Part shown: positions 5,503 through 45,065 of the stretch, piece after piece
How the letters are laid out: the number at the start of each line of letters is the position of its first letter
How positions within the stretch are numbered: the first letter of the stretch is position 1
Made by a program: the position numbers and the translations under genes
Notes under the pieces: generated by a model
The model's input: only the letters and a program-made list of their open reading frames with translations
Databases searched by the model: none
Told to the model about the DNA's origin: nothing
DNA from: a virus
Lineage: Duplodnaviria; Heunggongvirae; Uroviricota; Caudoviricetes
Length of the DNA stretch: 64,000 bases
IMG/VR virus record: IMGVR_UViG_3300038443_000233
Location: 1 to 64,000 of that record
Direction: 5' to 3' (one strand)

Positions 5503-7125
5503 TTACATTCCTTGCCAGTCGTAGTCACGCTGCATTTGCCGAAGCTCCCTCCGCAGATTCGGCATGTGATCCAGCCCCATCTCGGCATGCATCGCATCTA
5601 CTGCGTGCTCTCCGTTGATAGTGCCGTTCAGGTACAGAGGGGTTGCCCCCTCGTCGTGTCTTGCACCGTTAGCGTAGTAATCGATAGCTTCCGCTACCGA
5701 ATCGTTGATTTCCAGCACACGCATCGCACGAGTAACAGCAACGTACAGAAGGTTCTGTTCCATGTCCGTCAGGCCCACCCAGTCCCCACCGTCGTAATGG
5801 CTTGGGAAGTCGTCTGCCAGAATCACTTGGTCGTGCTCACGTCCCTTCGCCTTGTGGCCCGTGGTGTAGATGATCGCAGCGTTGTCCGGGTTCTGGTAGT
5901 TCTCCAGCGTCCGGGTAAAGCGGAAATAGTCCCCACCTTCGATGATGTTGACGATGCGCTTCATCTCGCCCTTCATCTTCTCGGCTTCTTCCTTGTACTC
6001 TTCCCACGTAGGGTACGGAAGCATGTTCTCGTGCTTGACGTTCTTCATGTCCTTCTTGGACAGGGCGAACGCCGATTGTAGCAGACGGATGAAGTCTTTT
6101 ACGTCGATTTCCAGACGGATGTTCTGTCCAGCGGCGATAGCTGCCACGGCATTATACAGCAGGCCGGAGTTGGTACGGAAGAGGTACATATGCGGCTTCG
6201 TACGATCCACTACGTTCCTGCCAATGATGGTAGGCTGGTCGAGGCCGGTCAGCTTCATTTTGCCTTGCAGGACAGCCGTAGCAACGTCAGCAACGCCTTG
6301 GCCGAAGCGGAAGCTCTTCGTCAGGGCTTCGGTGTGGCCTTCGATACGCTCCATCGCGTTGATCGCACCACGCCAGCCGTAGATAGCTTGGTAGCGGTCG
6401 CCCACGAGGATGATCTTCGCACCGTACTTGGCTTGGGTCATCACGATGTCCAGAACGCAAGGGGTGCTATCCTGCGCTTCGTCCAGATACACCACGTTGA
6501 AGCCCAGCTTCGGCTTGCTGAGCTGGAACAGCTTCAGGTAGGTATCGTGCGATGCCAGCACAGGCGATTTCGGGTCGGTGCGATCTTCCCAGAGCTTCTT
6601 CGCCAGTCGCAGCACGTACGCACCACTCGATTTGTCAGCGTCCAGAGCCTTCTTCATGTCGAAACGCGGAAGGTGATGCTCGCCAATTTCCGAGTCAGCC
6701 GATTGTTCGAAGCGTTCAACGGTTTGGCGAACGAACAGGCCGACAGCATTCTCGGTGACAGCCAGCGTACCCAGCTCCATGTCCATGATGCAGCCGATCT
6801 TGTAGAAGCGAGCGATTTCCGTGCCGGTGAATGCCACGTTGACGTAGCCACCCTTCGGACGGGTCAGCTTGTCTTGCAGGCTACGGCCAAACTTGGCGTA
6901 GGCAATGCTGTGAGTGGTCTTGCACGTGACGTGTTGCGGGAACTTCTCGGCTGCGTCGGTTGCTGTTACCTTGTTGAAGGCCACGTAGAGCGATGGTTCC
7001 TGCACTTCCCCCGACACCAGCTTCAGGGTTGAGGTCTTACCACTGCCTGCGCCTGCTTCGATCTTCACAATCATGTGATTGACCGCTGCGGCGATGCAGT
7101 TCAGTTGTTGTTCGGTAGGGTTCAT
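5503..7125 (-). CDS. superfamily 1 (UvrD/Rep-like) DNA helicase
   Basis: The Walker A motif is GAGSGKTST and Walker B is YLDEAQD. GDRYQAIYGWRGA matches UvrD motif III. The likely start MNPTEQQ has a GGAGA RBS, and a minus-strand promoter TTGCAT-17-TATAAT lies at ~7156-7184. Confidence 0.8.
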   Translation of the reverse strand: MNPTEQQLNCIAAAVNHMIVKIEAGAGSGKTSTLKLVSGEVQEPSLYVAFNKVTATDAAEKFPQHVTCKTTHSIAYAKFGRSLQDKLTRPKGGYVNVAFTGTEIARFYKIGCIMDMELGTLAVTENAVGLFVRQTVERFEQSADSEIGEHHLPRFDMKKALDADKSSGAYVLRLAKKLWEDRTDPKSPVLASHDTYLKLFQLSKPKLGFNVVYLDEAQDSTPCVLDIVMTQAKYGAKIILVGDRYQAIYGWRGAINAMERIEGHTEALTKSFRFGQGVADVATAVLQGKMKLTGLDQPTIIGRNVVDRTKPHMYLFRTNSGLLYNAVAAIAAGQNIRLEIDVKDFIRLLQSAFALSKKDMKNVKHENMLPYPTWEEYKEEAEKMKGEMKRIVNIIEGGDYFRFTRTLENYQNPDNAAIIYTTGHKAKGREHDQVILADDFPSHYDGGDWVGLTDMEQNLLYVAVTRAMRVLEINDSVAEAIDYYANGARHDEGATPLYLNGTINGEHAVDAMHAEMGLDHMPNLRRELRQMQRDYDWQGM

Positions 7126-7155
7126 GTATTCTCCGTTTGGTTGGTTAGTGAGGTC

Positions 7156-7184
7156 ATTATACGTAAGAAGCGCTACGTATGCAA
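7156..7184 (-). promoter_or_regulatory. promoter TTGCAT-17-TATAAT
   Basis: It lies upstream of the helicase gene and has a consensus -10. Confidence 0.55.
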
Positions 7185-7358
7185 GCCCTTCACAAAAAGA
7201 AAAGCCACCCGAAGGTGGCACACCCGCCCCGGAGGGCGGTTGTTGTCAGCAGCTTTCGCTGATGATCCAGATCAAGATGAGCAGGAACAGGAAGCTCGCC
7301 GCATCGTCTGCCAGAACGAGCAGGAGTGTGAACACGATAATGAGTGCAAGTAGCATAG

Positions 7359-7613
7359 TTACCCTTTCTTATGTAGTTTGCCATGCAGGAAGGTAGACGT
7401 AATGCTACCAAGCCCGCCTCCGAGGCCGATTGCCAAGACAACCCACCCCATTCCGTTGTGGACGACGTTGAGCAAGATGATAGCCTCGCATACAGCCATC
7501 ACCATGCTCGTCGGCAGAATCCAAAGATACTTCTTGTGCATCACGTTCAATTGTTGGAACGAACGCAATCCAATGTTCAAGAAGCTCGTAATGAATGCTA
7601 GGAAGTAAATCAT
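7359..7613 (-). CDS. small membrane protein (2-3 TM helices)
   Basis: 84-aa hydrophobic ORF. A further 36-aa hydrophobic micro-ORF (MLLALIIVFTLLLVLADD...) lies at ~7243-7353 on the minus strand. Confidence 0.4.
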   Translation of the reverse strand: MIYFLAFITSFLNIGLRSFQQLNVMHKKYLWILPTSMVMAVCEAIILLNVVHNGMGWVVLAIGLGGGLGSITSTFLHGKLHKKG

Positions 7614-8956
7614 TTCTGATCCAGCGTGTAATGCTTCGGGTTCTTCCCAGCATGCAGCTCGTTGAGGGCTTTCACCTTGGCCTTCAGCATGTCCAGTTCC
7701 TTCAGGTAGCCAGCCATACGGAGGCGGTCATCGATCAGCATGCCAGCAGCACGAGCTTCCAGCAAGATAGCGATGTTCGCCAACACACCGCCGAGGTTAG
7801 GAACACCGTCAGCCGGGTCGTCTTCTTGTCCGCATGCCCACGCCAGCAAGTGACGCATTGCGGCAGCGATGTAGATACTCGCCTCTACGGGCGTATTCGC
7901 GAAGTTGGCCTTACCGTACTTCAGTGAACCATTGTACAGACCGAGTGCGCCGTACGCAGTCGCCAGTGGGCTCCACATATTCAACGGCACCGACGACACG
8001 CCGTACTGACGCTTCGGGTTTGTGTCTGGAGCCACATTCGTATCAGGTTGCACATTACCAGTCCAATCGATACCAAATGGCTTCGTACTTTCCGTGTTGA
8101 TCGTTCCAGTTGTAATGACGCCCGGACCAGTGCCCAGAGCTGACAGCGAACCTACTTCAAGGGCAATCGATTTGCCCATACTTTGTGCCAGATCAACAAC
8201 CATCTGTTCCTGCGTTACGGTCTTCATCTGTTCGCTTTCCGGTTGGATGCGGTACGCTACGATATCGCCCCCACTACCGTCTTGTTTCCAGTCCCAGTAA
8301 TACGTATCTGCTGCGGTTGCCAGAAGCTCATCACCATCGCTAAAACGTATCTCCACCAATGTTCCCGCAACGACCGGCATTTTTCCACCTTTCCACTCGA
8401 TCCACTCGCTTACTGCGGGCTTCTGTTTGTGCTTATTCGGCGTCAGCACTTTGTAGCTTTCGATGGTAAAGCCGCCGAAATCGTACCAACAGAAATAACC
8501 GGCTCGTCCAGTTTCCGTGTTGCCGTTACGAAAACGAACAGACACCAGAACATCCTTTCGGACAGGGATAGTGTTGTGAGTCTTCTTGGTAGCCGTAGCA
8601 TCCCATTTACGCTGCGCACGACGCTTCTTGGAAGCCTTGCTTTCCTCGCGTTTGATAGCTTTCACTTCTTCCGCAGCAGCTTTCAGCTCGTCCAGCGTCA
8701 CTTCACGTTGCGGGCCTTTCACAACAGCGGAACTTGGAACTTTCGGAGATGTGCCCGATGCGTGCCAAATAGTGCCTTCGTCGTCCACGCGGATGTATGC
8801 CGCCGGGGAGTAATCATGAACTTGACGAGGATTGCCGAAGCCCCACCGGAAGCCCATAGCGAAGTATGCCTTCTCGGCTTCACCTGTAGAGCCTCCGTGC
8901 AGTTTTACGAATGTATCTTTGAACTTCGACGTGATTTGATTGGTTGCTTGCGTCAT
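7610..8956 (-). CDS. hypothetical protein (448 aa), replication-module protein of unknown function
   Basis: Long ORF with an RBS and conserved leader. A minus-strand promoter TTGACA-17-TACACT lies at ~8987-9015. No motif could be assigned confidently. Confidence 0.6.
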   Translation of the reverse strand: MTQATNQITSKFKDTFVKLHGGSTGEAEKAYFAMGFRWGFGNPRQVHDYSPAAYIRVDDEGTIWHASGTSPKVPSSAVVKGPQREVTLDELKAAAEEVKAIKREESKASKKRRAQRKWDATATKKTHNTIPVRKDVLVSVRFRNGNTETGRAGYFCWYDFGGFTIESYKVLTPNKHKQKPAVSEWIEWKGGKMPVVAGTLVEIRFSDGDELLATAADTYYWDWKQDGSGGDIVAYRIQPESEQMKTVTQEQMVVDLAQSMGKSIALEVGSLSALGTGPGVITTGTINTESTKPFGIDWTGNVQPDTNVAPDTNPKRQYGVSSVPLNMWSPLATAYGALGLYNGSLKYGKANFANTPVEASIYIAAAMRHLLAWACGQEDDPADGVPNLGGVLANIAILLEARAAGMLIDDRLRMAGYLKELDMLKAKVKALNELHAGKNPKHYTLDQK

Positions 8957-13072: not shown

Positions 13073-13530
13073 TTGTGTTTCTCCTTTGGTTTTCGGGGCA
13101 TGTAAAAAGCATGCTTTCCGATGGTTAGAATTCGTTTCATCTTGTGTGCCCACGTTGGGTGCACTTTGTTGCTATGAAAGTACGTAGCGTTACTTGCGAC
13201 AGGTGCTATTCTACGTACTTTCGACAAGCGTTGCAACATTTCTTCGGTCGCTGTCAACCTCATGCCACGATGGTAGCCTGAGAACTGGTAAGGTTCCTTA
13301 ACTACCTCGCACGCCGTAAGGCGTCGAATTTCCATCCGGTGCTTGACGACATCATACACGGCTCGTTGGCCCCGTAGCGGCTCACCACGGGCTTCGTCAT
13401 CGATAACCCATGCCATGCAGATGTCGTCTCGTGTGATGGCTGGGGCCATCGGGATGTGCGGCGGGGTTGCCAGCGTGTTCGTAACCAGTGATGTACATAG
13501 CACTACCACACTAAGCAACCGTCTTATCAT
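13069..13530 (-). CDS. SleB/CwlJ-like cell-wall hydrolase with N-terminal signal peptide (candidate endolysin)
   Basis: MIRRLLSVVVLCTSLVTNTLA reads as a signal peptide. The motif EARGEPLRGQRAVYDVV is typical of the Hydrolase_2 (SleB) family. Confidence 0.55.
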   Translation of the reverse strand: MIRRLLSVVVLCTSLVTNTLATPPHIPMAPAITRDDICMAWVIDDEARGEPLRGQRAVYDVVKHRMEIRRLTACEVVKEPYQFSGYHRGMRLTATEEMLQRLSKVRRIAPVASNATYFHSNKVHPTWAHKMKRILTIGKHAFYMPRKPKEKHK

Positions 13531-14117
13531 TTCCCATGCCTTTCTGTATAGCCTGCACCTTCGGAATTCAAGTAGCTTACCACAGCACTGCGGTAGAAGC
13601 AAGCTGCGGAAAACGCTGGCAGCAAGCCGTACTTATCGACGCTGAAATACTTCGTGCGCCTTTTACCTTCACCGACATCATTCCACTGTACCTTGGCATA
13701 AGTGTTTCCTGCCTTGTTCACATGAAATCCGACTCCAGTTTTACCGGACGAGTTGTTCTCGTACATAGCCTTGTTACGGCTGTTCTCTATCGTACCTACT
13801 AGCCTCAAATTGGACGCCCGATTGTTACTTCGGTCGCCGTCTTCGTGGTCAACTTCGTCGTCCGTACCAAGCTCCACTTTGTTCACGATTGCATAGACAA
13901 TCCTGTGGCACTTCAGTTGGACACCTTTGTGCCTCGTGATCCAGCAGCCGGTTGCGTCGTGAAAGTGCCCTACAGCGTCTCCTGCTTTATTGACAACTGT
14001 TGTGTGCTTTCGCCCACGAGGTTTGTCCTTCCGCAGTCGGAGGCAACTTTCACTCGTCTCGTCATAATAAAAGGCAGCACTGAGTTCAGCAAGTGAAAAT
14101 TCAGTGCCCGCTCGCAT
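13527..14117 (-). CDS. HNH homing endonuclease with AP2 DNA-binding domain
   Basis: The HNH motif is CHRIVYAIVNKVELGTDDEVDHEDGDRSNNRASNL. The C-terminus is AP2-like (GVGFHVNKAGNTYAKVQW). Confidence 0.7.
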   Translation of the reverse strand: MRAGTEFSLAELSAAFYYDETSESCLRLRKDKPRGRKHTTVVNKAGDAVGHFHDATGCWITRHKGVQLKCHRIVYAIVNKVELGTDDEVDHEDGDRSNNRASNLRLVGTIENSRNKAMYENNSSGKTGVGFHVNKAGNTYAKVQWNDVGEGKRRTKYFSVDKYGLLPAFSAACFYRSAVVSYLNSEGAGYTERHGK

Positions 14118-20309: not shown

Positions 20310-20478
20310 ATGCAAGGCAATTTCAATTTCGAACGCAACACCCGTAAGCTCAACAACCAGCGCCCGCCACGTGGCGAGCAAACGGAGCGGCAACCGCAAC
20401 AGAAACGCGGTAAGCAGCAACAAAACTGGGAGCGAACGGATTCAAAACGTAACTGGGATTCATTTGGAGCTGTGTAAT
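20310..20478 (+). CDS. small basic protein (56 aa)
   Basis: The product is MQGNFNFERNTRKLNNQRPPRGEQTERQ..., with an 'agggag' RBS. The ORF is not in the supplied track. Confidence 0.3.
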
Positions 20479-21043
20479 GCTTCCAGACCAACAAGATAAT
20501 GGTATGTGGCTGCAAGGTCGGACAATTGACCGGAAATGGCACCGAACGCTAGCCGGTAACGTGTGGAACTGCATGCGCAACCGTTGCAAGTCAGGTGAAA
20601 AGCCTGCGTACCTTGGCTGTGAACTCTCTGAAGAATTCAAAGACTTTCAGAAGTTTGCTGAATGGTACGTTTCACAGGTGGGGTACGGTCTGGGCTATGA
20701 GTTGGACAAGGATTTTCTGGCGGGAGGCTCAAAGGTGTACTCCCCGGAAACTTGCGTACTGATTCCTCACAGTCTGAACGCGTTCATCAAACCTGTAAAC
20801 CCTACTAAAACTGATGGTCTACCAGTTGGCGTGTACCTACGACGTGGGAGCGGGACATACCGGGCTATCATTGGCATTGATAATAGAACGCAGTCGCTTG
20901 GTTCGTTCCAAACGGTTGAATCTGCTGAAACTGCGTATAAAGCAGCAAAACGCGCAGAGACGTTGCGTTGGATAGGTCGGCTTGAGAGTGGTGAATTCGT
21001 TGTGGATGATCGTATTATTACCGCTCTTCGCAAGATGGTATAA
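20477..21043 (+). CDS. HNH homing endonuclease with AP2 domain
   Basis: An HNH_3-like N-terminus is followed by an AP2-like segment (LPVGVYLRRGSGTYRAIIG). Confidence 0.65.
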   Translation: MLPDQQDNGMWLQGRTIDRKWHRTLAGNVWNCMRNRCKSGEKPAYLGCELSEEFKDFQKFAEWYVSQVGYGLGYELDKDFLAGGSKVYSPETCVLIPHSLNAFIKPVNPTKTDGLPVGVYLRRGSGTYRAIIGIDNRTQSLGSFQTVESAETAYKAAKRAETLRWIGRLESGEFVVDDRIITALRKMV

Positions 21044-21751: not shown

Positions 21752-21781
21752 ATGAACGCCACGGCTCGTCCGTGGCGTTTT
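21752..21781 (+). terminator. intrinsic terminator
   Basis: The stem AACGCCACGG...CCGTGGCGTT is followed by ttt. Confidence 0.65.
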
Positions 21782-21793
21782 CGTATGTAGAGT

Positions 21794-21868
21794 TTTCTCG
21801 GATTTGCTTTTGAAAATCAAAAGTCAGATTTTCAAACAGGACTGGGGAATTTTCGAGTCTCTTCTTAA
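21794..21868. repeat. direct repeat copy 2 (~75 bp)
   Basis: It matches the copy at 17830-17904 and contains the hairpin cttttgAaaatcaaaag. Confidence 0.8.
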
Positions 21869-21947
21869 AGAGAAATCGCCCGATCCTGCCCCGAAAATAG
21901 GCGAATTGGTGCACCGCAGCAGAGAAAGTTGCTCAAAATCAACGAAC

Positions 21948-22056
21948 TGTGGATAACCTGTGGACAAGCTGTGCACAACCCGTCCCGGCCTGTGGGCAAC
22001 CTTAGAAAAGCACGGCCGTTCTGTGGATATGTTTCCCCTGATGCATGTTATCCACA
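21948..22056. promoter_or_regulatory. cluster of six DnaA-box-like 9-mers (oriC-like)
   Basis: TGTGGATAA at 21948, TGTGGACAA at 21959, TGTGCACAA at 21970, TGTGGGCAA at 21991 and TGTGGATAT at 22022 share one orientation. TTATCCACA at 22048 is inverted. Confidence 0.6.
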
Positions 22057-22439
22057 GCCAATAGCCTATCGCCTATCATACTATGCCGATTGATAGGTAA
22101 ATGCTATTCACTATCGATTTTGGTTTTCGATAGCAAACACCGAACGCCCGGACGCGTGCGACAGGTACAGCCATGTATTTATTTTAGGCAACAGTTACCC
22201 ATTGGAAAGAGTTACTTGTAAGTAACATTCCCTTCCATCCAAGCAACGGGACACAATGCCCGATTACCCACTCTATCAGGCTGGAGCCGTACACAACAGG
22301 TTACGGTCGATACCTCACTCATCAGGTTAGACCATAGGCTAGATCGTAGGATGGAACGTAACACTAGCTGGCACGCTACTTGCCCATGCAAACTCTGTGC
22401 CATGTTGCTTGTGTGGTAAGGAATGTTGCTTACATAGCA

Positions 22440-22520
22440 CTCTTATACAAGAGTAGTCTTATATAAGACATCAGACTTAAAACTGATAAGCTATAAGAGT
22501 TAAGTCTTTGATTTGAAAAG
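22440..22520. repeat. AT-rich palindromic segment (CTTATA/TATAAG repeats; perfect palindrome GTCTTATATAAGAC)
   Basis: It lies between the DnaA-box groups and is a candidate DNA-unwinding element. Confidence 0.4.
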
Positions 22521-22537
22521 AAAAGTACCTTTCTGCC

Positions 22538-22546
22538 TGTGGATAA
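22538..22546 (+). promoter_or_regulatory. perfect DnaA box TGTGGATAA
   Basis: Exact match to the consensus. Confidence 0.5.
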
Positions 22547-22642
22547 CTATGCCATTGTGACGTGCTTTGCTTGCAAATTTCACAGAAATAAACAGGACGA
22601 TTTACACAAACCGCGTCTAAAGACCATGTTTTTAAGCAAAAG

Positions 22643-22651
22643 TTATCCACA
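22643..22651 (+). promoter_or_regulatory. perfect DnaA box TTATCCACA
   Basis: Exact match to the consensus. Confidence 0.5.
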
Positions 22652-23217
22652 TCCCTATGCCGTTTAAACGCGTTTTGAGGGGGCGCCAATGAGTTATTCA
22701 CACTGGGGTATAGCGGCATATCAACCATACCGAGAAAACGTCTCTATCGCGTTTTTCGGTTTTCTGGCACAGTTGTTGCTTATGGAGTTCTGGCACGAAT
22801 GTTGCTACGTGCGCGTGCGTCACGCGTGCGTGATTTCTCTTTTAGGTCGCGTACGTATCGCTGCCTACCTACCGTGGCGCTGTTACAAATTATTTTAAAT
22901 AGGGTATTGCGGATACCCTAAATCCTAGGCATAATCCTAACCACTGACACACACAACGATGTGTCAGGGAAGGGGCGAATGCCCTAAAGCCTAGCGGCGC
23001 GTAGCGGTGGATTCCAAAGCGCAAAGCGGTGGCAATAGGTAGATAGCCAATAAGTCTGTTCTTTAACAATTCATAACATGATGCCCGTATCGCTGGGATA
23101 GCGTAACAAGAGGGGCATACAAACTAGGCCACATGGGAATGTCGCTTAGGACAGTAGATAAAACTAGGAACCGTTAGAAATAGCGGTTCCGAATTTATCT
23201 CACTGACGGAGTATGAA

Positions 23218-30078: not shown

Positions 30079-30114
30079 GGCCCGTACCTAGACAGGACGG
30101 GCCTTTTCTTTTAG
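30079..30114 (+). terminator. intrinsic terminator of early operon
   Basis: The stem GGCCCGT...ACGGGCC is followed by ttttctttt. Confidence 0.7.
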
Positions 30115-30412
30115 GCAATACTTGCGTAATCAATGAGTAGTCAACCAGCCCTGTCTGCCGACCTAGTACGTAACCCTACCTAACCATGCATGCGGTAACA
30201 CGCCTAGAACGCATGGGAATGGGCCTACATTCAACGAACGCCATTACTTGGCTAGGCTGGTATAGGCAAGCCTATTTAAAACGCTCTAAACGCGTCCTGT
30301 AGAACGTACATATAACACTGTTATTCGCAACGATTATAGTCATAGTCTAGTGCCATAGGCACAGAACATAACTCTATCGGCCTATGGCCGTTGCCTGTAC
30401 TACCTTCCCCAT

Positions 30413-30434
30413 TGACCCCTTGAACGGGGTCAAC
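30413..30434. repeat. perfect palindrome TTGACCCC-TTGAAC-GGGGTCAA
   Basis: 8-bp arms, located inside the palindrome array region. Confidence 0.6.
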
Positions 30435-30916
30435 CTATAGGCCATTGGCCTAATCCTACCTGTGCCATTGGCACAATAGATAACTCTATCGTTCTCTATT
30501 CATCATTCCTATATCATCCCCACATAGCAGAAATACTATCGCCTATGGCGAATTAATAGCACATAGCCATAGGCTATGGCATATACCATGCCCATAGGGC
30601 ATAGCAATAATAGCCTGTGCCTATGGCACTAGACATACTCATATGTGTAGCCAATGACAGACAGGCGGGGCGTTAGCTTAGCCTGTGCACTAGCCAATGG
30701 CTCTTTCTTGGCACGAGAATTGCATGTCCGGGCCTTTGGCCCCTACCAAACGCTATCGATCTACACTCGGCCATAGGCCAGAGCTATAATCGTTTAAACG
30801 AGCTATGAGGCGTTTGCAGAACGCACCCTAGTGCGGACATCAACGAGGCATCGTTCGGCCCTCTACGGGCCTATACGCAAGCCGTAGGCATATCCCTGTG
30901 CCAATGGCACGAATAG

Positions 30917-30925
30917 TTATCCACA
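30917..30925 (+). promoter_or_regulatory. perfect DnaA box TTATCCACA within the palindrome array (a near-box, TTGTGGACA on the opposite strand, lies 20 bp downstream)
   Basis: Exact consensus 9-mer. Confidence 0.45.
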
Positions 30926-31261
30926 CTGGACAGGTAGATGTCCACAACCCAGACGTTCCTCTGGATTTTATACACAGCCCTTTAAACGCGTTTAGAGGCC
31001 CATAGCGACGTTCTCTGTGCCGATGGCACTTTCCCCCTGTCTGAGCCCTCCGGGCTGCTCCTATGATATTTCTGAGCCATTGGCGACCCCAATCGCCGCC
31101 CCCGGCGAGCCGTTAAGCAATCCGTTCGCCCTCCGCAGGTATTACCCTTTTTGAACATATCATCTTGAACGTGTTTCATAGGAGAAATGCCGAGAAAGTT
31201 TCGGCAGTGGGCGGATAAATTTCGCCAATGGCGATGGATATTGCGAATGAGGGCTGTTTCT

Positions 31262-31285
31262 TAAATTTTTTTTTTTTAAGAAAAT
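31262..31285. repeat. homopolymeric T12 tract flanked by CTTAAA/TTTAAG
   Basis: The sequence is cttaaattttttttttttaag. Confidence 0.7.
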
Positions 31286-31467
31286 CAATGACTTAGAAAT
31301 ACAAAGAGCCGGTGCAGCACAACGGCTACATCCCGGCTCTAGGGCTTACAGTTGACGGGCATGGCTGTAAGCATTTGCTCTATAGGGCCAATGGCCCGGT
31401 AGCCCGTGCAGTGACTTGACGTACGCTACACAGCGTAGGATATTCCAAGAGAACGTCAAGAAAAGAA

Positions 31468-31500
31468 AAGCCCCGCACGAGGCGGGGCCAAAGGGTATGC
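31468..31500 (-). terminator. intrinsic terminator for minus-strand operon
   Basis: On the minus strand, GGCCCCGCctcgtGCGGGGCC is followed by ttttcttttc. Confidence 0.65.
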
Positions 31501-35476: not shown

Positions 35477-36148
35477 TCACGCTACCTCTCTGAAGCGGTC
35501 TACGACGTTTTTGACGGACATGGCGTGCCATTCACCGCCACGGGCGGTCTTCACCCGCATGTCGTTCAATTCGTTCGCCATCGCCCGGTAGGACATCCCG
35601 GCGAGGATCATACGCTGGATCATCGGGCGGAGTTTGTCAGCAAACGCGTCAGCCTGTTCCTTGAGGGCCAAGGAAGCGCATGCGACAGCCTTCGCACGGA
35701 CAGCGGCAGACGCCCCAAGAACCTCGCCACGGGCTTTCTTGGCTTGCAGGCCATCCCGTGTGCGGTCCGAAATCATCTTGCGCTCTTTCTCCGCCAAACC
35801 GGCGTAGATGTGCAGCGTGAACGGGTCAACGTCCTCGCCAAGCTGGGTCACGATAGTGCGGGGATTGTCGCGGACGTACGTGAGGATGAACACGGCGTCA
35901 CGAGAGAGGCGGTCGAGCTTGTTGACGACGATGTAGGCGCCGATCTTCTTTGCTCGTTTGGTGATTTCAGCAAGCACCGGGCGCTCGTCATCGGCTCCAG
36001 TGCGGACTTCCTGAACTATTTCAACGATTTCGTAACCGTTGTAGTGGGCGAACAGGCGGATTGCCTCTGCCTGTGCCTCCAGACCGTTTTTCGTCTTGCC
36101 TTGCTCTTTGGTCGATACGCGGGTGTAGCCGATGATTTTCTTCTTCAT
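35477..36148 (-). CDS. serine recombinase (resolvase/invertase family)
   Basis: The catalytic N-terminus is IIGYTRVSTKEQ, with a C-terminal HTH. The start MKKKIIGY follows a GGAAGGA RBS. Confidence 0.8.
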   Translation of the reverse strand: MKKKIIGYTRVSTKEQGKTKNGLEAQAEAIRLFAHYNGYEIVEIVQEVRTGADDERPVLAEITKRAKKIGAYIVVNKLDRLSRDAVFILTYVRDNPRTIVTQLGEDVDPFTLHIYAGLAEKERKMISDRTRDGLQAKKARGEVLGASAAVRAKAVACASLALKEQADAFADKLRPMIQRMILAGMSYRAMANELNDMRVKTARGGEWHAMSVKNVVDRFREVA

Positions 36149-36207
36149 GATGTCCTTCCATGCGGTGGGTTGCGATGGAAGGATTATCACGTATAAAACC
36201 TAGACGG

Positions 36208-36603
36208 TCAAGCAGTTTTTGCAACTTTCGTATCTACGAACAAGAGGGCCAACTCTGCCTTCTGCTCTGCCAGCAGGGCGTCGAGCATCGCTTCCTGCTC
36301 ACGAGTGGTAGCCTGCTGCTGTTCAGGCAACTTACCAAATACGCGCATGTACTTCACGCGGATACGTTCTTTGCGGAAGATGGTCGAGATTTCTTCCTTG
36401 ATACGTTTCTGCATCTCGACGGCCTTATCCAGCTTTACAGCGTGTTTGCGACGATCCGCACATGCTTCCACGAAATACGCCGTCTCGCCTTGCTTGCGCC
36501 AATGTGCTGCTTCCAGCTTGCATTCCTTGACAGCAAATTGCAGCAGGGTAATGACATCGGCGTTCAGTTTCAGCGAATTGCGCAGGATCAGCAGGTTGCT
36601 CAT
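36208..36603 (-). CDS. hypothetical protein (131 aa)
   Basis: ORF. Confidence 0.4.
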   Translation of the reverse strand: MSNLLILRNSLKLNADVITLLQFAVKECKLEAAHWRKQGETAYFVEACADRRKHAVKLDKAVEMQKRIKEEISTIFRKERIRVKYMRVFGKLPEQQQATTREQEAMLDALLAEQKAELALLFVDTKVAKTA

Positions 36604-36737
36604 CTACTCAGACTCCAGTTGTTAGGTTATTTGTTCTCGGCATGTGGCCGACAGGAAGAATTATGCCGCAGGCGTAATGTAACGGAACAAGAAAATTTGA
36701 AAGTGTTGTTTCCGTACATCAATGTACGAACAAACAA

Positions 36738-37025
36738 TCACTTTCCGTCTGTCTTACCCCATCTGGCTTGACGAGCTTTAGCCAAGCTATCAGCTTTCGA
36801 CTGTTTAGGTGTCTGGTCCTGTACGCTCGCAACATTCGTGCGAAGACGTTGCACAGTGTCGTTGCTTCGCTCAAGCGTAACGGTGTACGTACCGCCCCAT
36901 AGACCTACTACATCTCCCGGATTTGCGACACTGATGGCCCAGCCATCCATGACCTTCAGTTCCAGTTCCTTCGCAAACTTTGCGAGACTGGTTTCCACGA
37001 TGTCGTGGTAGATGATGTCACTCAT
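36738..37025 (-). CDS. hypothetical protein (95 aa)
   Basis: ORF preceded by a 'ggaggta' RBS. Confidence 0.45.
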   Translation of the reverse strand: MSDIIYHDIVETSLAKFAKELELKVMDGWAISVANPGDVVGLWGGTYTVTLERSNDTVQRLRTNVASVQDQTPKQSKADSLAKARQARWGKTDGK

Positions 37026-38400: not shown

Positions 38401-38475
38401 AGCTGACTTACCCGAGAGGAAAGGGACCATCCTTGTAAGATGGAAGCCGTGGGTTCGAATCCTACAGTCAGCACC
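38401..38475 (+). tRNA. tRNA-Thr (anticodon TGT)
   Basis: Cloverleaf: acceptor GCTGACT/AGTCAGC, anticodon loop CTTGTAA, T-arm GTGGGTTCGAATCCTAC, CCA encoded. Confidence 0.7.
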
Positions 38476-38564
38476 ACGAGCCTGCGTTGCCGTCTACGGT
38501 CTTAATTGATTGAGAAGCGGCATGTAAGTCAAATCCCATTGCACACGGGGAGATAGTGTGCCAT

Positions 38565-38639
38565 TCTGGGTGTAAGTCATTGGTAGACAGCCTGTCTTGG
38601 ATACAGGTCGCAGTTGGTTCGATTCCAACCTCCCAGACC
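38565..38639 (+). tRNA. tRNA-Pro (anticodon TGG)
   Basis: Anticodon stem CCTGT/ACAGG, loop CTTGGAT, T-arm GTTGGTTCGATTCCAAC, CCA encoded. There is one acceptor mismatch. Confidence 0.65.
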
Positions 38640-38663
38640 AGAATTCAGTGCTAGTGTACAAAA

Positions 38664-38692
38664 CTTGACAAATTGTCGAGCGTATAGTAAGA
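38664..38692 (+). promoter_or_regulatory. promoter TTGACA-17-TAAGAT (internal to tRNA region)
   Basis: Same architecture as the promoter at 38096. Confidence 0.55.
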
Positions 38693-38878
38693 TAGCAGTA
38701 CGTAACGAATTTGACGTAACAACTACTTGTACCAGCTACGACCTGTAAGCGTACGTACGCGAATACCGGGCAACGTAGGAATGCTGGAACGTCATACTTA
38801 GCAATCGCAGAAGCGGCGTGAGTTAATCTACTCTCACTGAGGCGGAGACGGCCAAGAAACAGAACTGTCCAAGAACAA

Positions 38879-38952
38879 TTGCGGTGTGGTGTAACGGTTA
38901 GCACTATGGGCTCATAACCCGAAAGACCAGTTCGAATCTGGCGTCCGCAACC
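38879..38952 (+). tRNA. tRNA-Met/Ile2-type (anticodon CAT)
   Basis: D-arm GTGT-AACGGTTA-GCAC, anticodon loop CTCATAA, T-loop TTCGAAT. Two acceptor positions are mismatched, so the boundaries are approximate. Confidence 0.6.
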
Positions 38953-39023
38953 ATCCAATCCCGGTAACGTGTCCGGGTTTCTGCCGGTGAGCCGTGCAGG
39001 GAGAGCAAAACACGATTGACAAT

Positions 39024-39110
39024 TGTGGTGTGAGCGGAATTTGGTATCGCAGCGGACTGTTAATCCGTCACCGAAAGGTAACTGCTGGTTCGAGTCCAGC
39101 CTCCACAGCC
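39024..39110 (+). tRNA. atypical class II (long variable arm) tRNA with anticodon GTT (Asn) - assignment uncertain
   Basis: T-arm GCTGG-TTCGAGT-CCAGC is perfect. Anticodon stem GCGGA/TCCGT, loop CTGTTAA. The 15-nt variable arm folds as ACC-GAAA-GGT. The acceptor has a T-T mismatch. Confidence 0.45.
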
Positions 39111-39160
39111 AAGTTGAGAGTTAGCTGATAGCTCATGTCCAAAAATCAGCACGAACATAA

Positions 39161-39235
39161 TGGCTCTATCGTATAGTGGTTATTACGCCGGATTGTCGAT
39201 CCGAGCACGGGAGTTCAATTCTCCCTAGAGTCGCC
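39161..39235 (+). tRNA. tRNA-Asp (anticodon GTC)
   Basis: Acceptor GGCTCTA/TAGAGTC, anticodon loop TTGTCGA, T-loop TTCAATT, CCA encoded. Confidence 0.7.
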
Positions 39236-39251
39236 AGAATAGGACTAGACG

Positions 39252-39649
39252 TGAACACAACAAACATCGGAGACATCACTGAGCAAGGCTTTGTTCTACG
39301 GTGTTTGGAAAAAGAGATACCGATACTTCGTCCCGTAGGTAACAATCTACCGTACGACTTCGTGATTGAATATGAAGGCGCTCTCCGCAAGGTGCAAGTT
39401 AAGACGGGCCGGAAGGCCGCTTACGAAGGTTCGTACATATTCAACACACGTTCAACGTCGAAGAATTTTAATGAGGTAGTGCAGAAAACTTACGAAGGTA
39501 AGATCGACTACTTCGCAGTACAGTTCAGGGACCACTCCCGCGAATTCTATCTGATTCCGGTAGGGGACACAGGGACCAATGCTACCACTCTGTACCTTGG
39601 CGATAATCCTCGTCCGGGGCAGAATGTAGGCTCCAAGTACAAGTTTTAA
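39252..39649 (+). CDS. putative nuclease-fold protein (PD-(D/E)XK-like; free-standing/homing endonuclease candidate) embedded in tRNA array
   Basis: Track ORF 39176..39649 overlaps tRNA-Asp. The plausible start is GTG at ~39252 after AGGA. PYDFVIEYEG...RKVQVK resembles a PD-(D/E)XK core. The assignment is tentative. Confidence 0.35.
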
Positions 39650-39655
39650 GAATAT

Positions 39656-39728
39656 GCGGCCTACCTACTGGGATAGGGCTTTGCCTTCCAAGCAAATGAA
39701 AACGGTTCGAATCCGTTAGGCCGCTCCA
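39656..39728 (+). tRNA. tRNA-Gly (anticodon TCC)
   Basis: Acceptor GCGGCCT/AGGCCGC is perfect. Anticodon stem TTTGC/GCAAA, loop CTTCCAA. T-arm AACGG-TTCGAAT-CCGTT. Confidence 0.75.
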
Positions 39729-39830
39729 AGTTCCCCGACAAGGAACAGCAGCTCGTAACAGAGCTTCGCTACGTTAGTTTCGTAAAACTCAGGTTGGTAC
39801 GTACCTGTCAGTAATCGTACCACGAACATT

Positions 39831-39907
39831 GGGCAAGTGACGGAATTGGTTTACGTGCTACTCTTAGAAAGTAGATTTTGTGGGTTCGAGTCCCACCTTG
39901 CCTACCA
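39831..39907 (+). tRNA. class I tRNA with anticodon TAG (would read CUA/Leu) - atypical
   Basis: Acceptor GGGCAAG/CTTGCCT, anticodon stem CTACT/AGTAG, loop CTTAGAA. Short 5-nt variable arm. T-arm GTGGG-TTCGAGT-CCCAC. Confidence 0.55.
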
Positions 39908-39912
39908 GTCAG

Positions 39913-39950
39913 GGATGTCGTCGCAGGTTCGATTCCTGCCGCTTAAAACC
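39913..39950 (+). other. orphan tRNA 3'-half-like element (perfect T-arm GCAGG-TTCGATT-CCTGC without matching 5' half)
   Basis: It follows the previous tRNA immediately. An orphan canonical D-arm-like 5' half (TAGCTCAGTCGGTAGAGCG) lies downstream at ~39957-40000. Confidence 0.35.
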
Positions 39951-39999
39951 TTAAGTGGTCTAGCGTAGCTCAGTCGGTAGAGCGGTCCCACATTACAAC

Positions 40000-40082
40000 G
40001 TGCGAGTGGCTTGGGTAAATCGGTACAGCCAGTAGGCTCAAACCCTACGCTTTTGTCGGTTCGAATCCGGCCTTGCATACCA
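40000..40082 (+). tRNA. tRNA-like, anticodon CAA (Leu?) with irregular D-region
   Basis: Anticodon arm GTAGG-CTCAAAC-CCTAC is perfect. T-arm GTCGG-TTCGAAT-CCGGC. Acceptor GTGCGAG/CTTGCAT pairs with two G-U wobbles. The D-arm is unusually long. Confidence 0.4.
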
Positions 40083-40093
40083 AGCAGTACAAT

Positions 40094-40167
40094 GGTGACG
40101 ATAGTGTAATGGGAGCATTGCTGTCTGTGAAACAGCAGGAATGGGATCGAAACCCAGCGTCACACCA
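40094..40167 (+). tRNA. tRNA-His (anticodon GTG)
   Basis: Anticodon stem GCTGT/ACAGC, loop CTGTGAA. An extra 5' G is consistent with the His G-1 identity element. Confidence 0.65.
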
Positions 40168-40309
40168 AATTTATTTACTCATACGTGGGTTCCTAGTACG
40201 GGGGTTCGAGTCCCAATGGTAACGGAAGTGGAATCCAGCTACCGCCGACTAGCTACCGGCGAAATACGGCGCCTAGCGAGCGAACGGCGTATGCGTAAGT
40301 GAATTTAAT

Positions 40310-40385
40310 GCGGAAGTAGCTGATGAGGTCTTAGCGCTGGCCTGAAAACCCAGAGATGAAGGTTCGATACCTTCATTCCGCACCA
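40310..40385 (+). tRNA. tRNA-Phe (anticodon GAA)
   Basis: T-arm GAAGG-TTCGATA-CCTTC, acceptor GCGGAAG/ATTCCGC, anticodon loop (C)CTGAAAA. Confidence 0.6.
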
Positions 40386-40395
40386 GACGAACAAC

Positions 40396-40487
40396 GCGTG
40401 TAAGCCGAATATTGGTTAAGTCGGCGCTGACTGTAAATCAGTAGTGGGCTCGACCCGGTGGAGGTTCAATTCCTTCTGCACGCACCA
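40396..40487 (+). tRNA. tRNA-Tyr (anticodon GTA), class II
   Basis: Anticodon stem GCTGA/TCAGT, loop CTGTAAA. The variable arm is 17 nt. Acceptor GCGTGTA/TGCACGC. Confidence 0.7.
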
Positions 40488-40493
40488 TACAGT

Positions 40494-40570
40494 GTTCCAT
40501 TCGACTTCTGGTTGAGGTCAGCGTCCTTTCAAGTCGCGCAGGCTCGGTTCAAATCCGGCATGGAACTCCA
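40494..40570 (+). tRNA. tRNA-Glu (anticodon TTC)
   Basis: Acceptor GTTCCAT/ATGGAAC is perfect. D-stem GACT/GGTC. Anticodon loop CTTTCAA. Confidence 0.7.
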
Positions 40571-40577
40571 AAACAAT

Positions 40578-40652
40578 GCTTGGTTAATTCAGCGGTAGAA
40601 AATCATCCTTACAAGGTGATAGTCGTTGGTTCGAATCCAACACCAAGTACCA
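40578..40652 (+). tRNA. tRNA-Val (anticodon TAC)
   Basis: T-arm GTTGG-TTCGAAT-CCAAC. Anticodon stem TCATC/GGTGA, loop CTTACAA. Confidence 0.7.
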
Positions 40653-40658
40653 AGATAT

Positions 40659-40733
40659 GGGCTGGAGCGTAGGTTACGCTGGCCTCCCTTGCACGGAGCG
40701 CTGATCGGAGTTCGATTCTCCACTGGTCCACCA
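40659..40733 (+). tRNA. tRNA-Ala (anticodon TGC)
   Basis: The G3:U70 wobble in the acceptor is the Ala identity element. D-stem AGCG/CGCT. Anticodon loop CTTGCAC. Confidence 0.8.
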
Positions 40734-40800
40734 GAGTAGAAGCGTGGAACAACACAAAGCTACGGCTAATAACGGCTGCTGCGTGCCACGCTCAATGAAC

Positions 40801-40874
40801 CGCCGCATGGCAGAGTGACTATGTACTTGCCTGCAAAGCTTGGGAGATTGGTTAAAATCCAATTGCGGCGTCCA
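40801..40874 (+). tRNA. tRNA (isotype unresolved; possible Cys GCA)
   Basis: Acceptor CGCCGCA/TGCGGCG is perfect and T-arm ATTGG-TTAAAAT-CCAAT is perfect. The D and anticodon arms are poorly paired in my manual fold. Confidence 0.5.
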
Positions 40875-40881
40875 AGACAAT

Positions 40882-40954
40882 ACGTGATCCGAGGGATATC
40901 GGCTCTGGCGCTACGAACGCTGGCTGGGTGGTTCGACTCCATCATTACGTGCCA
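40882..40954 (+). tRNA. tRNA-Arg (anticodon ACG)
   Basis: Anticodon stem TGGCG/CGCTG, loop CTACGAA. T-arm GGTGG-TTCGACT-CCATC. Acceptor ACGTGAT/ATTACGT. Confidence 0.7.
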
Positions 40955-40956
40955 TA

Positions 40957-41030
40957 TAATCTGCTACTTACCTTCACCCTGAATTGACAGGGCATTCGCG
41001 GAAGGGGAGCCACGTAGGTAGCAGATTATA
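40957..41030 (+). other. long imperfect hairpin (TATAATCTGCTACTTACC ... GGTAGGTAGCAGATTATA) with structured 42-nt loop
   Basis: A ~17-bp inverted repeat lying between tRNA-Arg and tRNA-Ser. Confidence 0.4.
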
Positions 41031-41031
41031 T

Positions 41032-41121
41032 GGAAGATTAACCAGCCGGGGCGCTGGCGGGCTTTGCTAAAGCTTTGGTGCGTGTCGAGCGCATGGCAGT
41101 CGGGATGTCAATCTTCCGCCA
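41032..41121 (+). tRNA. tRNA-Ser (anticodon GCT), class II, 90 nt
   Basis: Acceptor GGAAGAT(T)/(A)ATCTTCC + G + CCA. Anticodon stem GGGCT/AGCTT, loop TTGCTAA. The long variable arm GTGCG-TGTCGAG-CGCAT has a non-canonical T-loop. The terminal sequence resembles selC, but the anticodon is not TCA. Confidence 0.55.
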
Positions 41122-41229
41122 GAGTAAATTTTCGCTGAACGTGGTAAGCGTTTCCGTCACCAAGCGCTTGAGGGCGGTAGCTAAGTAAAAACAACTCTTC
41201 GCCATTATCGGACTAAATGGCACGAACAT

Positions 41230-41321
41230 GGAGACTCAATCCGATTGGCGACGGAACCGGCCTTGAAAGCCGTGCGAGCTAGAAATAGCCTTGGGAGTTC
41301 GACTCTACCCAGTCTCCGCCA
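41230..41321 (+). tRNA. tRNA-Ser (anticodon TGA), class II, 92 nt
   Basis: Acceptor GGAGACT/AGTCTCC is perfect. D-stem TCC/GGA with a long loop. Anticodon loop CTTGAAA. Variable arm GCTA-GAAA-TAGC. T-loop TTCGACT. Confidence 0.7.
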
Positions 41322-41461
41322 GAGTACCCGTAAGGGGCTTGCTACGTTGCTGCTTCTTAAGCGTTAAAGCAGACTATAGGTTGGCCGTAGATTTGTGTGC
41401 ACACGAAGAACGGCGTGATGGTACTAACGTACATGACAGGTCGAGAAAGATCGACACGAAT

Positions 41462-41537
41462 AGTCCCGTAGTTTAACTGGTTAAAACGGTGGACCGATAA
41501 TCCACTAATCTGTGTTCGATCCACAGTAGGACTACCA
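41462..41537 (+). tRNA. tRNA-Ile (anticodon GAT)
   Basis: D-stem GTTT/AAAC, anticodon stem GTGGA/TCCAC, loop CCGATAA. T-arm CTGTG-TTCGATC-CACAG, CCA encoded. Confidence 0.75.
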
Positions 41538-44691: not shown

Positions 44692-45065
44692 TGGCAATCA
44701 CAAAATCGAATAAGGTTATTATCGCGGCGGGAACGTCTTGTGCCGCTGGCACAACCAAGGCGTCGCCGGGTGTAACTGGTACGGCATATGATTGCACTAC
44801 GTATTACGGAGGCGAACTTACTTGGCGTATTACTAATGGTTCGTCAGCTCCTACGGTGGCATGTACGATTCAGTTTCAAATTTCCCCAGATAACAGCACT
44901 TGGTACGACTATTATGCTGTGGCTGGCGATGTCACTGCTAGTAGCGCATACAGTGGAGCTTTTATCCTTGATAGGGGTGCTATGTATGTAAGGGCAATTG
45001 CTTACGGTAACGCAACTAATGCAGTTACCGTAGAAGCAGCTCTTCAGGCCGTGACAGGAGTTTAA
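44691..45065 (+). CDS. hypothetical structural protein (124 aa)
   Basis: ORF with overlapping ATGA coupling. Confidence 0.5.
   Translation: MAITKSNKVIIAAGTSCAAGTTKASPGVTGTAYDCTTYYGGELTWRITNGSSAPTVACTIQFQISPDNSTWYDYYAVAGDVTASSAYSGAFILDRGAMYVRAIAYGNATNAVTVEAALQAVTGV

Follow-up and report, generated by a model that had tools for sequence, protein, structure and literature searches.

A conserved array of covarying minimal hairpins at a gene-free junction in an uncultured tailed phage genome

What property is maintained in a phage locus that encodes no protein and is packed with tiny inverted repeats of differing sequence? This question is raised by a 64,000-nucleotide stretch of an uncultured tailed phage (positions 1 to 64,000 of IMG/VR record IMGVR_UViG_3300038443_000233; the whole stretch is referred to below as the window). 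Its gene-free stretch at 30110-31469 (1.36 kb) contains an array of about 15 minimal dyads of 13 nt, each composed of a 5-bp stem and a 3-nt, mostly A/T loop, with the consensus G-K-S-C-C-W-W-W-G-G-S-M-C. The genome of the source phage is about 90 kb in size and the phage is apparently lytic. Analysis of the array in the window and in related genomes showed that intrastrand pairing of the DNA is the conserved property: the fold rather than the sequence is kept. An initial annotation, made from the letters of the window, had proposed that compensatory variation reflects selection on hairpin-forming potential, and this proposal survived a non-circular covariation test, the comparison of orthologs and strain-level variation.

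Architecture and covariation of the dyads

The pattern GCCWWWGGC was found 18 times in the window, against 2.04 +/- 1.41 copies expected from dinucleotide shuffles (none of 100 shuffles reached 18), an excess stronger than that first noted. Fourteen of the 18 copies fall within 30352-31395. In the gene-free stretch 14 perfect dyads combine a 5-bp stem with a 3-nt loop, which corresponds to 10.3 per kb versus 0.46 per kb in the rest of the window; when the region alone was shuffled, the mean was 0.64 hairpins and the maximum 5 in 2000 shuffles. The excess peaks at a loop of 3 nt. Loops of 2, 7 and 8 nt are close to background, and the 4-7-fold excess seen with loops of 4-6 nt is at least partly due to the same dyads with one pair fewer. 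Almost all stems have exactly 5 bp, and longer ones (6 bp or more) are about as frequent as chance predicts.

The core shared by all copies had been given as GCC-(A/T)3-GGC. The invariant part is instead CC-N3-GG, as exemplified by ATGCCC-ATA-GGGCAT (30588) and AGCCC-TCC-GGGCT (31044), and the stems of relatives include GTCCC, GCTCC and GCCCC. The description of every copy as a perfect 5-bp dyad holds for most of them and fails for three of the 14 GCCWWWGGC copies (30693, 30770 and 31076), in which the outer pairs are imperfect. The loop sequence is free to vary: A-W-T is favoured in one subclade, and any sequence can be found in two of the relatives (L001 and L006). The spacers between dyads are A/T-rich and often 10-16 bp long, the flanks of the dyads are 66-81% A+T, and a spacing of 23-29 bp recurs. 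The second gene-free region of the same genome (21780-23200) has no such dyads. The remaining elements of the initial annotation were also found in place: the region lacks open reading frames (ORFs) of more than 65 aa, it is bounded by the terminator of the early operon and that of the minus-strand block, and it carries a DnaA box, TTATCCACA, and a palindrome with 8-bp arms (Table 1). No coding potential was found in the region.

To avoid circularity, sites for the covariation analysis were chosen by the invariant CC-N3-GG core only. In five genomes 53 of the 83 cores (64%) were perfect 5-bp dyads, with all three further pairs complementary, whereas permuting the 3' flanks among sites gave a mean of 6.9 perfect dyads out of 83 (about 8%) and a maximum of 16 in 10000 permutations. 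Outside the array regions only 8 of 205 cores were perfect. The covariation score, calculated for 106 instances from six genomes, was 0.416 versus 0.118 +/- 0.019 for shuffled data; it was reached by none of 500 shuffles and fell to 0.03-0.09 with slid partners. At least 16 distinct stem sequences are present. Comparison of orthologs located stem-class switches by double changes at 30378 (CGGCC to GGGCC), 30539 (TCGCC to GTGCC), 30898 (GTGCC to GGGCC) and 30730 (GGGCC to GTGCC), and the 8-bp palindrome switched from TTGACCCC/GGGGTCAA to TTGGCCC/GGGCCAA. Even between close-to-identical co-occurring strains the hairpin at 30730 was exchanged from GGGCC-TTT-GGCCC to GGACC-ATT-GGTCC.

Pairing is kept symmetrically on the two strands. 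Single mismatches show no wobble bias (four G-T/T-G versus four A-C/C-A). Each unit is predicted to fold as single-stranded DNA with -3.5 to -5 kcal/mol, and the predicted fold of the 311-nt left cluster has z = -6 for the plus strand and -8.5 for the minus strand. The pairs are, in addition, strongly biased in orientation: G-C outnumbers C-G by 36 to 3 at pair 1 (the outermost), T-A outnumbers A-T by 21 to 1 at pair 2, and G-C outnumbers C-G by 36 to 12 at pair 3, while pairs 4 and 5 form the invariant CC/GG. This bias holds no strand information, because a palindrome is identical on both strands. It does indicate that stability is not the sole constraint and that the sequence is read as well as the pairing.

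Relatives and the position of the array in the genome

Relatives were recovered with flanking proteins and the DNA pattern as anchors, and all seven genomes are metagenomic. Arrays are present at the same gene-free junction in six further genomes, in which the flanking 201-aa protein is only 47-71% identical across the array-bearing genomes. When dyads with a CC core and a stem of at least 4 bp were counted, 16 were found in L002/L060, 18 in L005 and 10 each in L001 and L006; L063 has 12 dyads in 1.5 kb, and in L061 and L088 the array lies at contig ends. Copy number and exact positions differ among the genomes; many individual positions are nevertheless kept. Non-hairpin blocks are conserved too in an alignment of five genomes, namely TTTGTCAAC, AACGTTCTTTCTT, ATGATATTTCTGG, GTTAAGCMA, TTATCCACA...CCAGACG...TTATACACA, TTTAAACGCGTTT(T)GAG and the tract AAAWTTTTTTAAAATCAA.

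No comparable element was recognised elsewhere, in agreement with the initial annotation, which could not map the motif to anything described. The gene-free region had no DNA match among 50,697 phage records (INPHARED), the Rfam scan returned only sub-threshold terminator-like matches and no family at gathering score, and the literature searches gave no description of a minimal-hairpin array kept by compensatory change and no example outside the clade. As a negative control, 42 unrelated viral loci, drawn from 45 IMG/VR loci matching TTTAAACGCGTTTTGAG that added no clade members, contained 0-2 dyads each and no cluster. A pattern scan of all IMG/VR for two adjacent GTGCC-type dyads returned the clade and a single tandem repeat in a giant-virus metagenome-assembled genome. 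That contig (L087, 2451-2591) has a 28-bp tandem repeat, GCACCTTTGGTGCCGGTGCCAAAGGCAC, with two alternating palindromes; it matched the search pattern only and is unrelated to the phage array.

Other anchors extended the set no further. Cultured phages have no homolog of the 201-aa flanking protein, the 66-aa flanking protein has homologs in unrelated large phages and gained no synteny, and searches with a 102-aa minus-strand protein and a 198-aa protein gave no loci. Phyletic profiling for a partner protein produced only conserved ORFs without an assigned function, e.g. 36160-36771.

The array lies where two gene blocks converge. The minus strand of 1-18 kb carries replication genes (PolA, helicase, T7-gp4-like primase-helicase and ligase), plus-strand small genes fill 19.7-30.07 kb, and a minus-strand block occupies 31.5-37 kb. 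A tRNA cluster (38402-41537, 14 genes by ARAGORN) is followed in order by genes for an SGNH esterase, TerL, portal, major head protein and an 1850-aa tape measure protein. Kinship of the window proteins to cultured phages is only distant: the primase-helicase has 57% identity with that of Otagovirus phiPsa374, the large terminase subunit, TerL, best matches that of Pakpunavirus (41% identity across 98% of the protein), and the major head protein is 47-50% identical to those of Limnohabitans phage DC31 and Pseudomonas phage vB_PseuGesM_254. Close-to-identical genomes are present in several JGI and Logan metagenome assemblies, the longest contig being 91.5 kb.

The same gene order, i.e. plus-strand small genes, gene-free junction, minus-strand genes, tRNA cluster and TerL, is found in phiPsa374 and vB_PseuGesM_254. 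Portal and major head protein follow TerL in all three; a lipase/esterase is common only to the window and phiPsa374. Both phage records end, and have their direct terminal repeat (DTR), exactly at this convergent junction. The DTR is 526 bp in phiPsa374 (PMC9796965) and about 630 bp in vB_PseuGesM_254. A junction of the same kind holds the terminal redundancy of PaP1, which run-off sequencing showed to be 1190 bp long (PMC3652863). The non-coding length is also similar, 1.1-1.7 kb. On the basis of this synteny and of the terminase similarity, the array region may correspond to the physical ends or DTR of the phage.

A more distant parallel is provided by T5. In its left terminal repeat, as in the window, plus-strand small ORFs (6417-8657) are followed by terminators. 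The T5 "repeat region 3" consists of 1.2 kb of untranslated DNA across the repeat boundary at 10139. It contains a major nick as well as palindromes, direct repeats and DnaA boxes, and a minus-strand ORF converges on it, as minus-strand genes do in the window. A second, upstream non-coding region of T5, with DnaA boxes and pre-early promoters, is paralleled by the gene-free region at 21.78-23.2 kb. The window has the T5-type layout of at least 1 kb of untranslated, palindrome-rich DNA between converging blocks, and the T5 repeat even contains ATTAAACGCGTTAGA at 9262, which resembles the window motif TTTAAACGCGTTTAGA. T5 is no close relative of this phage, and its repeat measures 10 kb. The T5 palindromes are few, longer and rich in A/T, the main repeat type is a direct one (TGTGCAAATCCGACA in nine copies), and an array of covarying GC mini-hairpins is lacking. 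T5 has paired DnaA boxes in inverted-repeat modules that recur in its upstream non-coding region. In the window DnaA boxes and the motif GTTTAAACGCGTTT(T/A)GAGG are present in both gene-free regions, with copies that are direct and organised otherwise. The role of repeat region 3 as an injection-stop signal is itself a hypothesis only (bioRxiv 10.1101/866236).

Possible functions of the array

Cruciform formation, which had been suggested alongside hairpins, is unlikely by the established energetics of cruciforms. Arms of 5 bp do not suffice for a stable cruciform to be extruded from duplex DNA, and because of this the hairpins would be expected to form in a single-stranded region. We tentatively favour a reading in which the array serves in cis, at the genome end, as a module of hairpins that form in single-stranded DNA while ends are processed, terminal repeats are copied or DNA is packaged; both the single-stranded state and the end-processing role are what we infer. 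The module would belong to the non-coding terminus of a DTR-bearing lytic phage whose genome has about 90 kb. Once this region became single-stranded, through end resection, local unwinding or strand displacement as the terminal repeat is copied when concatemers mature and are packaged, both strands would fold into a string of small GC-clamped hairpins. The string could be recognised by a hairpin-specific factor or could keep the strands apart, and the pair-orientation bias suggests that a protein would also read the stem.

A number of observations weigh against this reading. The ends of phiPsa374, vB_PseuGesM_254 and PaP1 share no sequence similarity with the region (blastn, nhmmer and local alignment, within shuffle range). 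They have no GC hairpin array and carry other repeats instead, namely direct repeats (TATATAGTGCAACGGTAAT in three copies, repeated TTCATCATG) with scattered short palindromes only. An apparent block in common with the phiPsa374 end and a TTCATCAT repeat in common with phage 254 were discarded, their alignment scores being within shuffle range. The assemblies all run on through the region; a collapsed DTR would be consistent with this, yet the continuity does not speak for one. Contigs that stop within the region could not be taken to mark physical termini: the two contigs of sample 3300046528 overlap by 127 bp, which marks an assembly-graph break, and short Logan and JGI contigs stop at different points, two that were checked doing so beside strain-variable sites. 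The region has a sigma-54-type promoter in four of the seven genomes and part of it may be transcribed, and its DnaA boxes and A/T tract suit an origin equally well. Finally, we know of no packaging or end-replication system that uses arrays of 5-bp hairpins, and literature searches gave none.

An origin would work by binding of DnaA to the boxes, unwinding of the A/T spacers or tract, and formation of mini-hairpins on both strands; these would hold the bubble open, or load or prime for the T7-gp4-like primase-helicase, with the sigma-54 promoter supplying transcriptional activation. Two consensus DnaA boxes and one variant do lie on one strand within 60 bp, and the second consensus box, TTATACACA, is found clade-wide (it is kept in L002, L005, L006, L063 and L088). 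The conserved 28-bp A/T tract (31261-31288), about 290 bp from the boxes, the A/T-rich spacers between hairpins and a promoter motif pointing at the boxes fit as well, and GC skew led the authors of the PaP1 study to propose an origin at the genome end (PMC3652863). We nevertheless regard an origin as doubtful, because the better candidate is a much stronger DnaA cluster 8 kb away (21.9-22.7 kb), which has 5-8 consensus boxes in both orientations and is kept in all clade members examined at that position. In T5 the comparable boxes do not coincide with the mapped origins (bioRxiv 10.1101/866236). Within the window GC skew tracks gene orientation only, no initiator gene adjoins the region, and the box TTATCCACA has been altered in L002 and is missing from L063. 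Origin and packaging recognition region had both been listed as candidates and both are retained, with synteny to phages of mapped ends favouring a genome-end or terminal-repeat role. Unlikely, too, is an array of duplex binding sites for a symmetric dimeric protein, be it an operator array, an end-binding or small-terminase array, a sigma-54 enhancer, or a matS- or KorB-like 13-bp palindrome. The 13-bp palindromic geometry, the invariant CC/GG and the orientation preference, which implies that sequence is read too, would suit such sites, as would the recurring 23-29-bp spacing, the nine dyads 80-360 bp upstream of the sigma-54 motif and the lineage-specific direct repeats that other lineages have at the same junction. 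The commonest class, GTGCC-AWT-GGCAC, differs by only one symmetric pair from the matS consensus GTGACRNYGTCAC. The half-sites of a homodimer should, however, evolve independently, and the arms covary far beyond permutation through at least 16 stems. The loop ends in L001 and L006 are usually non-complementary, three array genomes have no sigma-54 motif, the upstream region with four such motifs has no dyads, and no gene for an enhancer-binding protein, ParB or a MatP-like protein was seen among the ORFs scanned. The same covariation disfavours operators for small early proteins, which the initial annotation had also considered.

The hairpins might instead act in RNA, in read-through or sigma-54-driven transcripts whose string of stem-loops would make 3' ends more stable, insulate one convergent operon from the other or sequester an RNA-binding protein. 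The location at the 3' ends of two convergent operons, reminiscent of repetitive extragenic palindromes (REP) and their mosaic elements (BIME), the promoter motif at 30709 and a few single changes that yield plus-strand G-T pairs speak for this. We consider it quite improbable, since strong intrinsic terminators shield both flanks, dyads stand on both sides of the internal promoter and in three genomes without that promoter, wobble-type mismatches are strand-symmetric, there is no Rfam match, and 3-nt A/U loops are poor RNA loops. Moreover, the genome-terminus region of PAK_P3, the equivalent region there, is the one untranscribed part of that genome (PMC4933390). Very improbable, in our view, is an array with no function of its own, in which the dyads would be by-products of a mutational process in non-coding DNA, either template-switch correction of quasi-palindromes or the spread of a tiny palindromic unit. 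Hairpin-templated correction would itself give perfect complementarity, and copy number and exact positions do vary among genomes. Such a process is hard to reconcile with arrays that persist at the same junction in seven genomes in spite of the divergence of the flanking proteins, with the retention of many individual dyad positions, with the invariant CC/GG and the strongly biased pair orientation, and with the lack of dyads in the other gene-free region of the genome.

Several known systems were compared with the array and set aside. A partition centromere or par site is unsupported: the phage of about 90 kb looks lytic, the stems vary and covary, and PHROG/Pfam scans of the larger window ORFs, not of all ORFs, revealed no Par proteins (ParA/ParB). 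Centromere repeats are not known to covary. A sigma-54 enhancer (upstream activating sequence) array was rejected as a general explanation because the promoter is present in only four of the seven genomes, the four-motif region has no dyads, and no activator was seen among the ORFs scanned. The virion-RNA-polymerase promoters of N4 are DNA hairpins recognised in single-stranded form, and the early ones, with a stem of 5-7 bp and a 3-nt loop, match the array in size. Here, in contrast, there are about 15 copies with variable stems, no virion RNA polymerase was found in the 64-kb window, outside which lie roughly 27 kb of the genome (the 1850-aa ORF is the tape measure protein), and there are no genes downstream, the flanking genes pointing inward. 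REP/BIME elements of enterobacteria and pseudomonads are likewise clustered extragenic palindromes at the 3' ends of convergent units with arms kept complementary. REP units are, however, about 35 nt long, imperfect, headed by GTAG, dispersed genome-wide and tied to RAYT transposases; the array units have 13 nt and occupy one locus only, and no RAYT-type gene was seen. Baculovirus hr elements, lambda ori iterons, KorB OB sites and matS are also short palindromes (about 13-30 bp) repeated in non-coding cis-acting regions; they keep one sequence, whereas the array arms covary. A CRISPR-repeat mimic (anti-CRISPR RNA) was considered in view of the type I-F repeat stem, CTGCC..GGCAG, which is similar to array stems, and was rejected because the array stems vary and the loop has 3 nt rather than 5.

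Repeat-rich untranslated end regions are an already known kind of feature. They are widespread in terminally redundant phages (T5, the T7 group, Pakpunavirus, Otagovirus) and their function is mostly unexplained. The array described here may represent an undescribed class of phage cis-element, in which minimal DNA hairpins are under structure-preserving selection on both strands and act only when the genome end is single-stranded, for instance by offering a recognition platform to an end-processing or replication protein specific for hairpins, or by locking terminal DNA in an unwound state. If the hairpins function in single-stranded DNA, DNA secondary structure, and not only protein-binding sequence, would be selected at phage ends, which would bear on the duplication, packaging or protection of terminal repeats. 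The unit is tiny and its covariation clear, so arm-swap mutations can separate structure from sequence.

Other features of the junction and the window

The features of the junction are listed in Table 1.

Table 1. Features of the gene-free junction and its borders (window coordinates)
Feature	Coordinates	Strand	Remarks
Intrinsic terminator, end of small early plus-strand genes	30082..30110	+	GGCCCGT...ACGGGCC then TTTTCTTTT; inverted repeat I6; same-place terminators in relatives
Gene-free region with hairpin array	30110..31469		No ORF >65 aa; syntenic in six other genomes; no Rfam match
Hairpin GTGCC-ATA-GGCAC	30350..30362		Orthologs TCGCC-ATT-GGCGA (L005), GTGCCC-AGT-GGGCAC (L001)
Hairpin CGGCC-TAT-GGCCG	30378..30390		Ortholog GGGCC..GGCCC (L002, L063), compensatory
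Palindrome, 8-bp arms, TTGACCCC-TTGAAC-GGGGTCAA	30413..30434		L063: TTGGCCC...GGGCCAA, compensatory
Hairpin TAGGCC-ATT-GGCCTA	30438..30452		L002, same place: GGGCC-ATT-GGCCC
Hairpin TGTGCC-ATT-GGCACA	30461..30475		Repeat family D1
Hairpin TCGCC-TAT-GGCGA	30539..30551		L063 aligned: GTGCC-AAT-GGCAC, two pairs compensated
Hairpin CATAGCC-ATA-GGCTATG	30562..30578		L002: single C>T gives G-T pair
Hairpin ATGCCC-ATA-GGGCAT	30588..30602		Orthologs GCCCC-ATA-GGGGC (L001), GGCCC-CTA-GGGCC (L006)
Hairpin GTGCC-TAT-GGCAC	30617..30629		With flanks (30615-30634), inverted copy of 30345-30364 (inverted repeat I1)
Weak 4-bp hairpin AGCC-AAT-GGCT	30692..30702		Missing from L002
Sigma-54-type -24/-12 promoter motif TGGCACGAGAATTGC	30709..30723	+	Kept in L002, L063, L088; absent from L001, L005, L006
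Hairpin GGGCC-TTT-GGCCC	30730..30742		Strain variant GGACC-ATT-GGTCC; L001, L005, L006: GTGCC..GGCAC
4-bp hairpin GGCC-ATA-GGCC	30769..30779		
Hairpin GTGCC-AAT-GGCAC	30898..30910		L002, same place: GGGCC-AAT-GGCCT
Three DnaA-box-like sites, one strand	30917..30976	+	TTATCCACA 30917, ATGTCCACA 30938, TTATACACA 30968
Motif GCCCTTTAAACGCGTTTAGAGG	30977..30998		Repeat family D2; more copies 30789-30810, 22659-22680; TTTAAACGCGTTTTGAG in L001, L005, L006
Hairpin GTGCC-GAT-GGCAC	31017..31029		Strain variant C>T at 31027 gives G-T pair
Hairpin AGCCC-TCC-GGGCT	31044..31056		Not kept in L002
Hairpin TCGCC-AAT-GGCGA	31222..31234		Kept in L002, L005, L061
A/T tract TTAAATTTTTTTTTTTTAAGAAAATCAA	31261..31288		Block kept in all five aligned genomes
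Hairpin GGGCC-AAT-GGCCC	31385..31397		Segment without counterpart in four other aligned genomes
Intrinsic terminator, end of minus-strand block	31469..31489	-	

The left hairpin cluster is bracketed by a 20-bp inverted repeat, CTAGTGCCATAGGCACAG (30345-30364) and CTGTGCCTATGGCACTAG (30615-30634), which is kept in L002 and pairs in the predicted single-strand fold. Co-occurring strains (L079, L082 and L084) vary in two short mosaic segments, 30727-30846 and 31042-31111. The latter resembles L002, and this suggests recombination inside the non-coding region. At least two short contigs that end inside the region stop beside these mosaic segments.

The second gene-free region, 21780-23200, has a dense cluster of DnaA boxes in both orientations: TGTGGATAA at 21948, TGTGGACAA, TGTGCACAA, TGTGGGCAA, TGTGGATAT, TTATCCACA at 22048, 22538(-) and 22643(+), and TTATTCACA at 22694. 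Counterparts with 5-8 consensus boxes are present in each of the five further clade genomes examined there, and the cluster could be an origin, a DnaA-titrating site or a T5-like injection-stop site. The motif GTTTAAACGCGTTT(T/A)GAGG is present in both gene-free regions (22659-22680, 30789-30810 and 30977-30998, also 30273-30295); it contains a palindrome of 10-12 bp, adjoins DnaA boxes and is kept in relatives.

Five perfect sigma-54-type motifs (TGGCAC-N5-TTGC) were found, at 22369(+), 22402(-), 22765(+), 22791(+) and 30709(+), where about 0.1 perfect matches are expected by chance. All five lie in the two gene-free regions. Orthologous motifs are kept in relatives, and two such motifs are present in the phiPsa374 DTR. 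No sigma-54 activator gene was seen among the ORFs scanned. Judged from these motifs, early transcription may depend on host RpoN; taken together with the DnaA-box cluster, they suggest an unusual reliance of early phage functions on host DnaA and RpoN.

Among the neighbouring genes, a short serine recombinase (237 aa, 35477-36190, minus strand) has a Resolvase domain and the start of a Recombinase domain, adjoins an HD-domain protein and lies in DNA of 59.6% GC. All clade members keep it, as do more distant phages (44-48% identity) with genomes of about 90 kb and no hairpin array; a link between array and recombinase was rejected on this ground. Two HNH endonuclease genes were found, at 20477-21043 (+), just upstream of the DnaA-box region, and at 13527-14117 (-), the latter with an additional AP2 domain. 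A tRNA-like sequence scored by Rfam at 40396-40484 was not called by ARAGORN. An isolated dyad with a 7-bp stem, TTGTGCC-GCT-GGCACAA, lies at 44738-44754 between two ORFs of the structural region; its stem sequence is that of the commonest hairpin class, and it is possibly a terminator.

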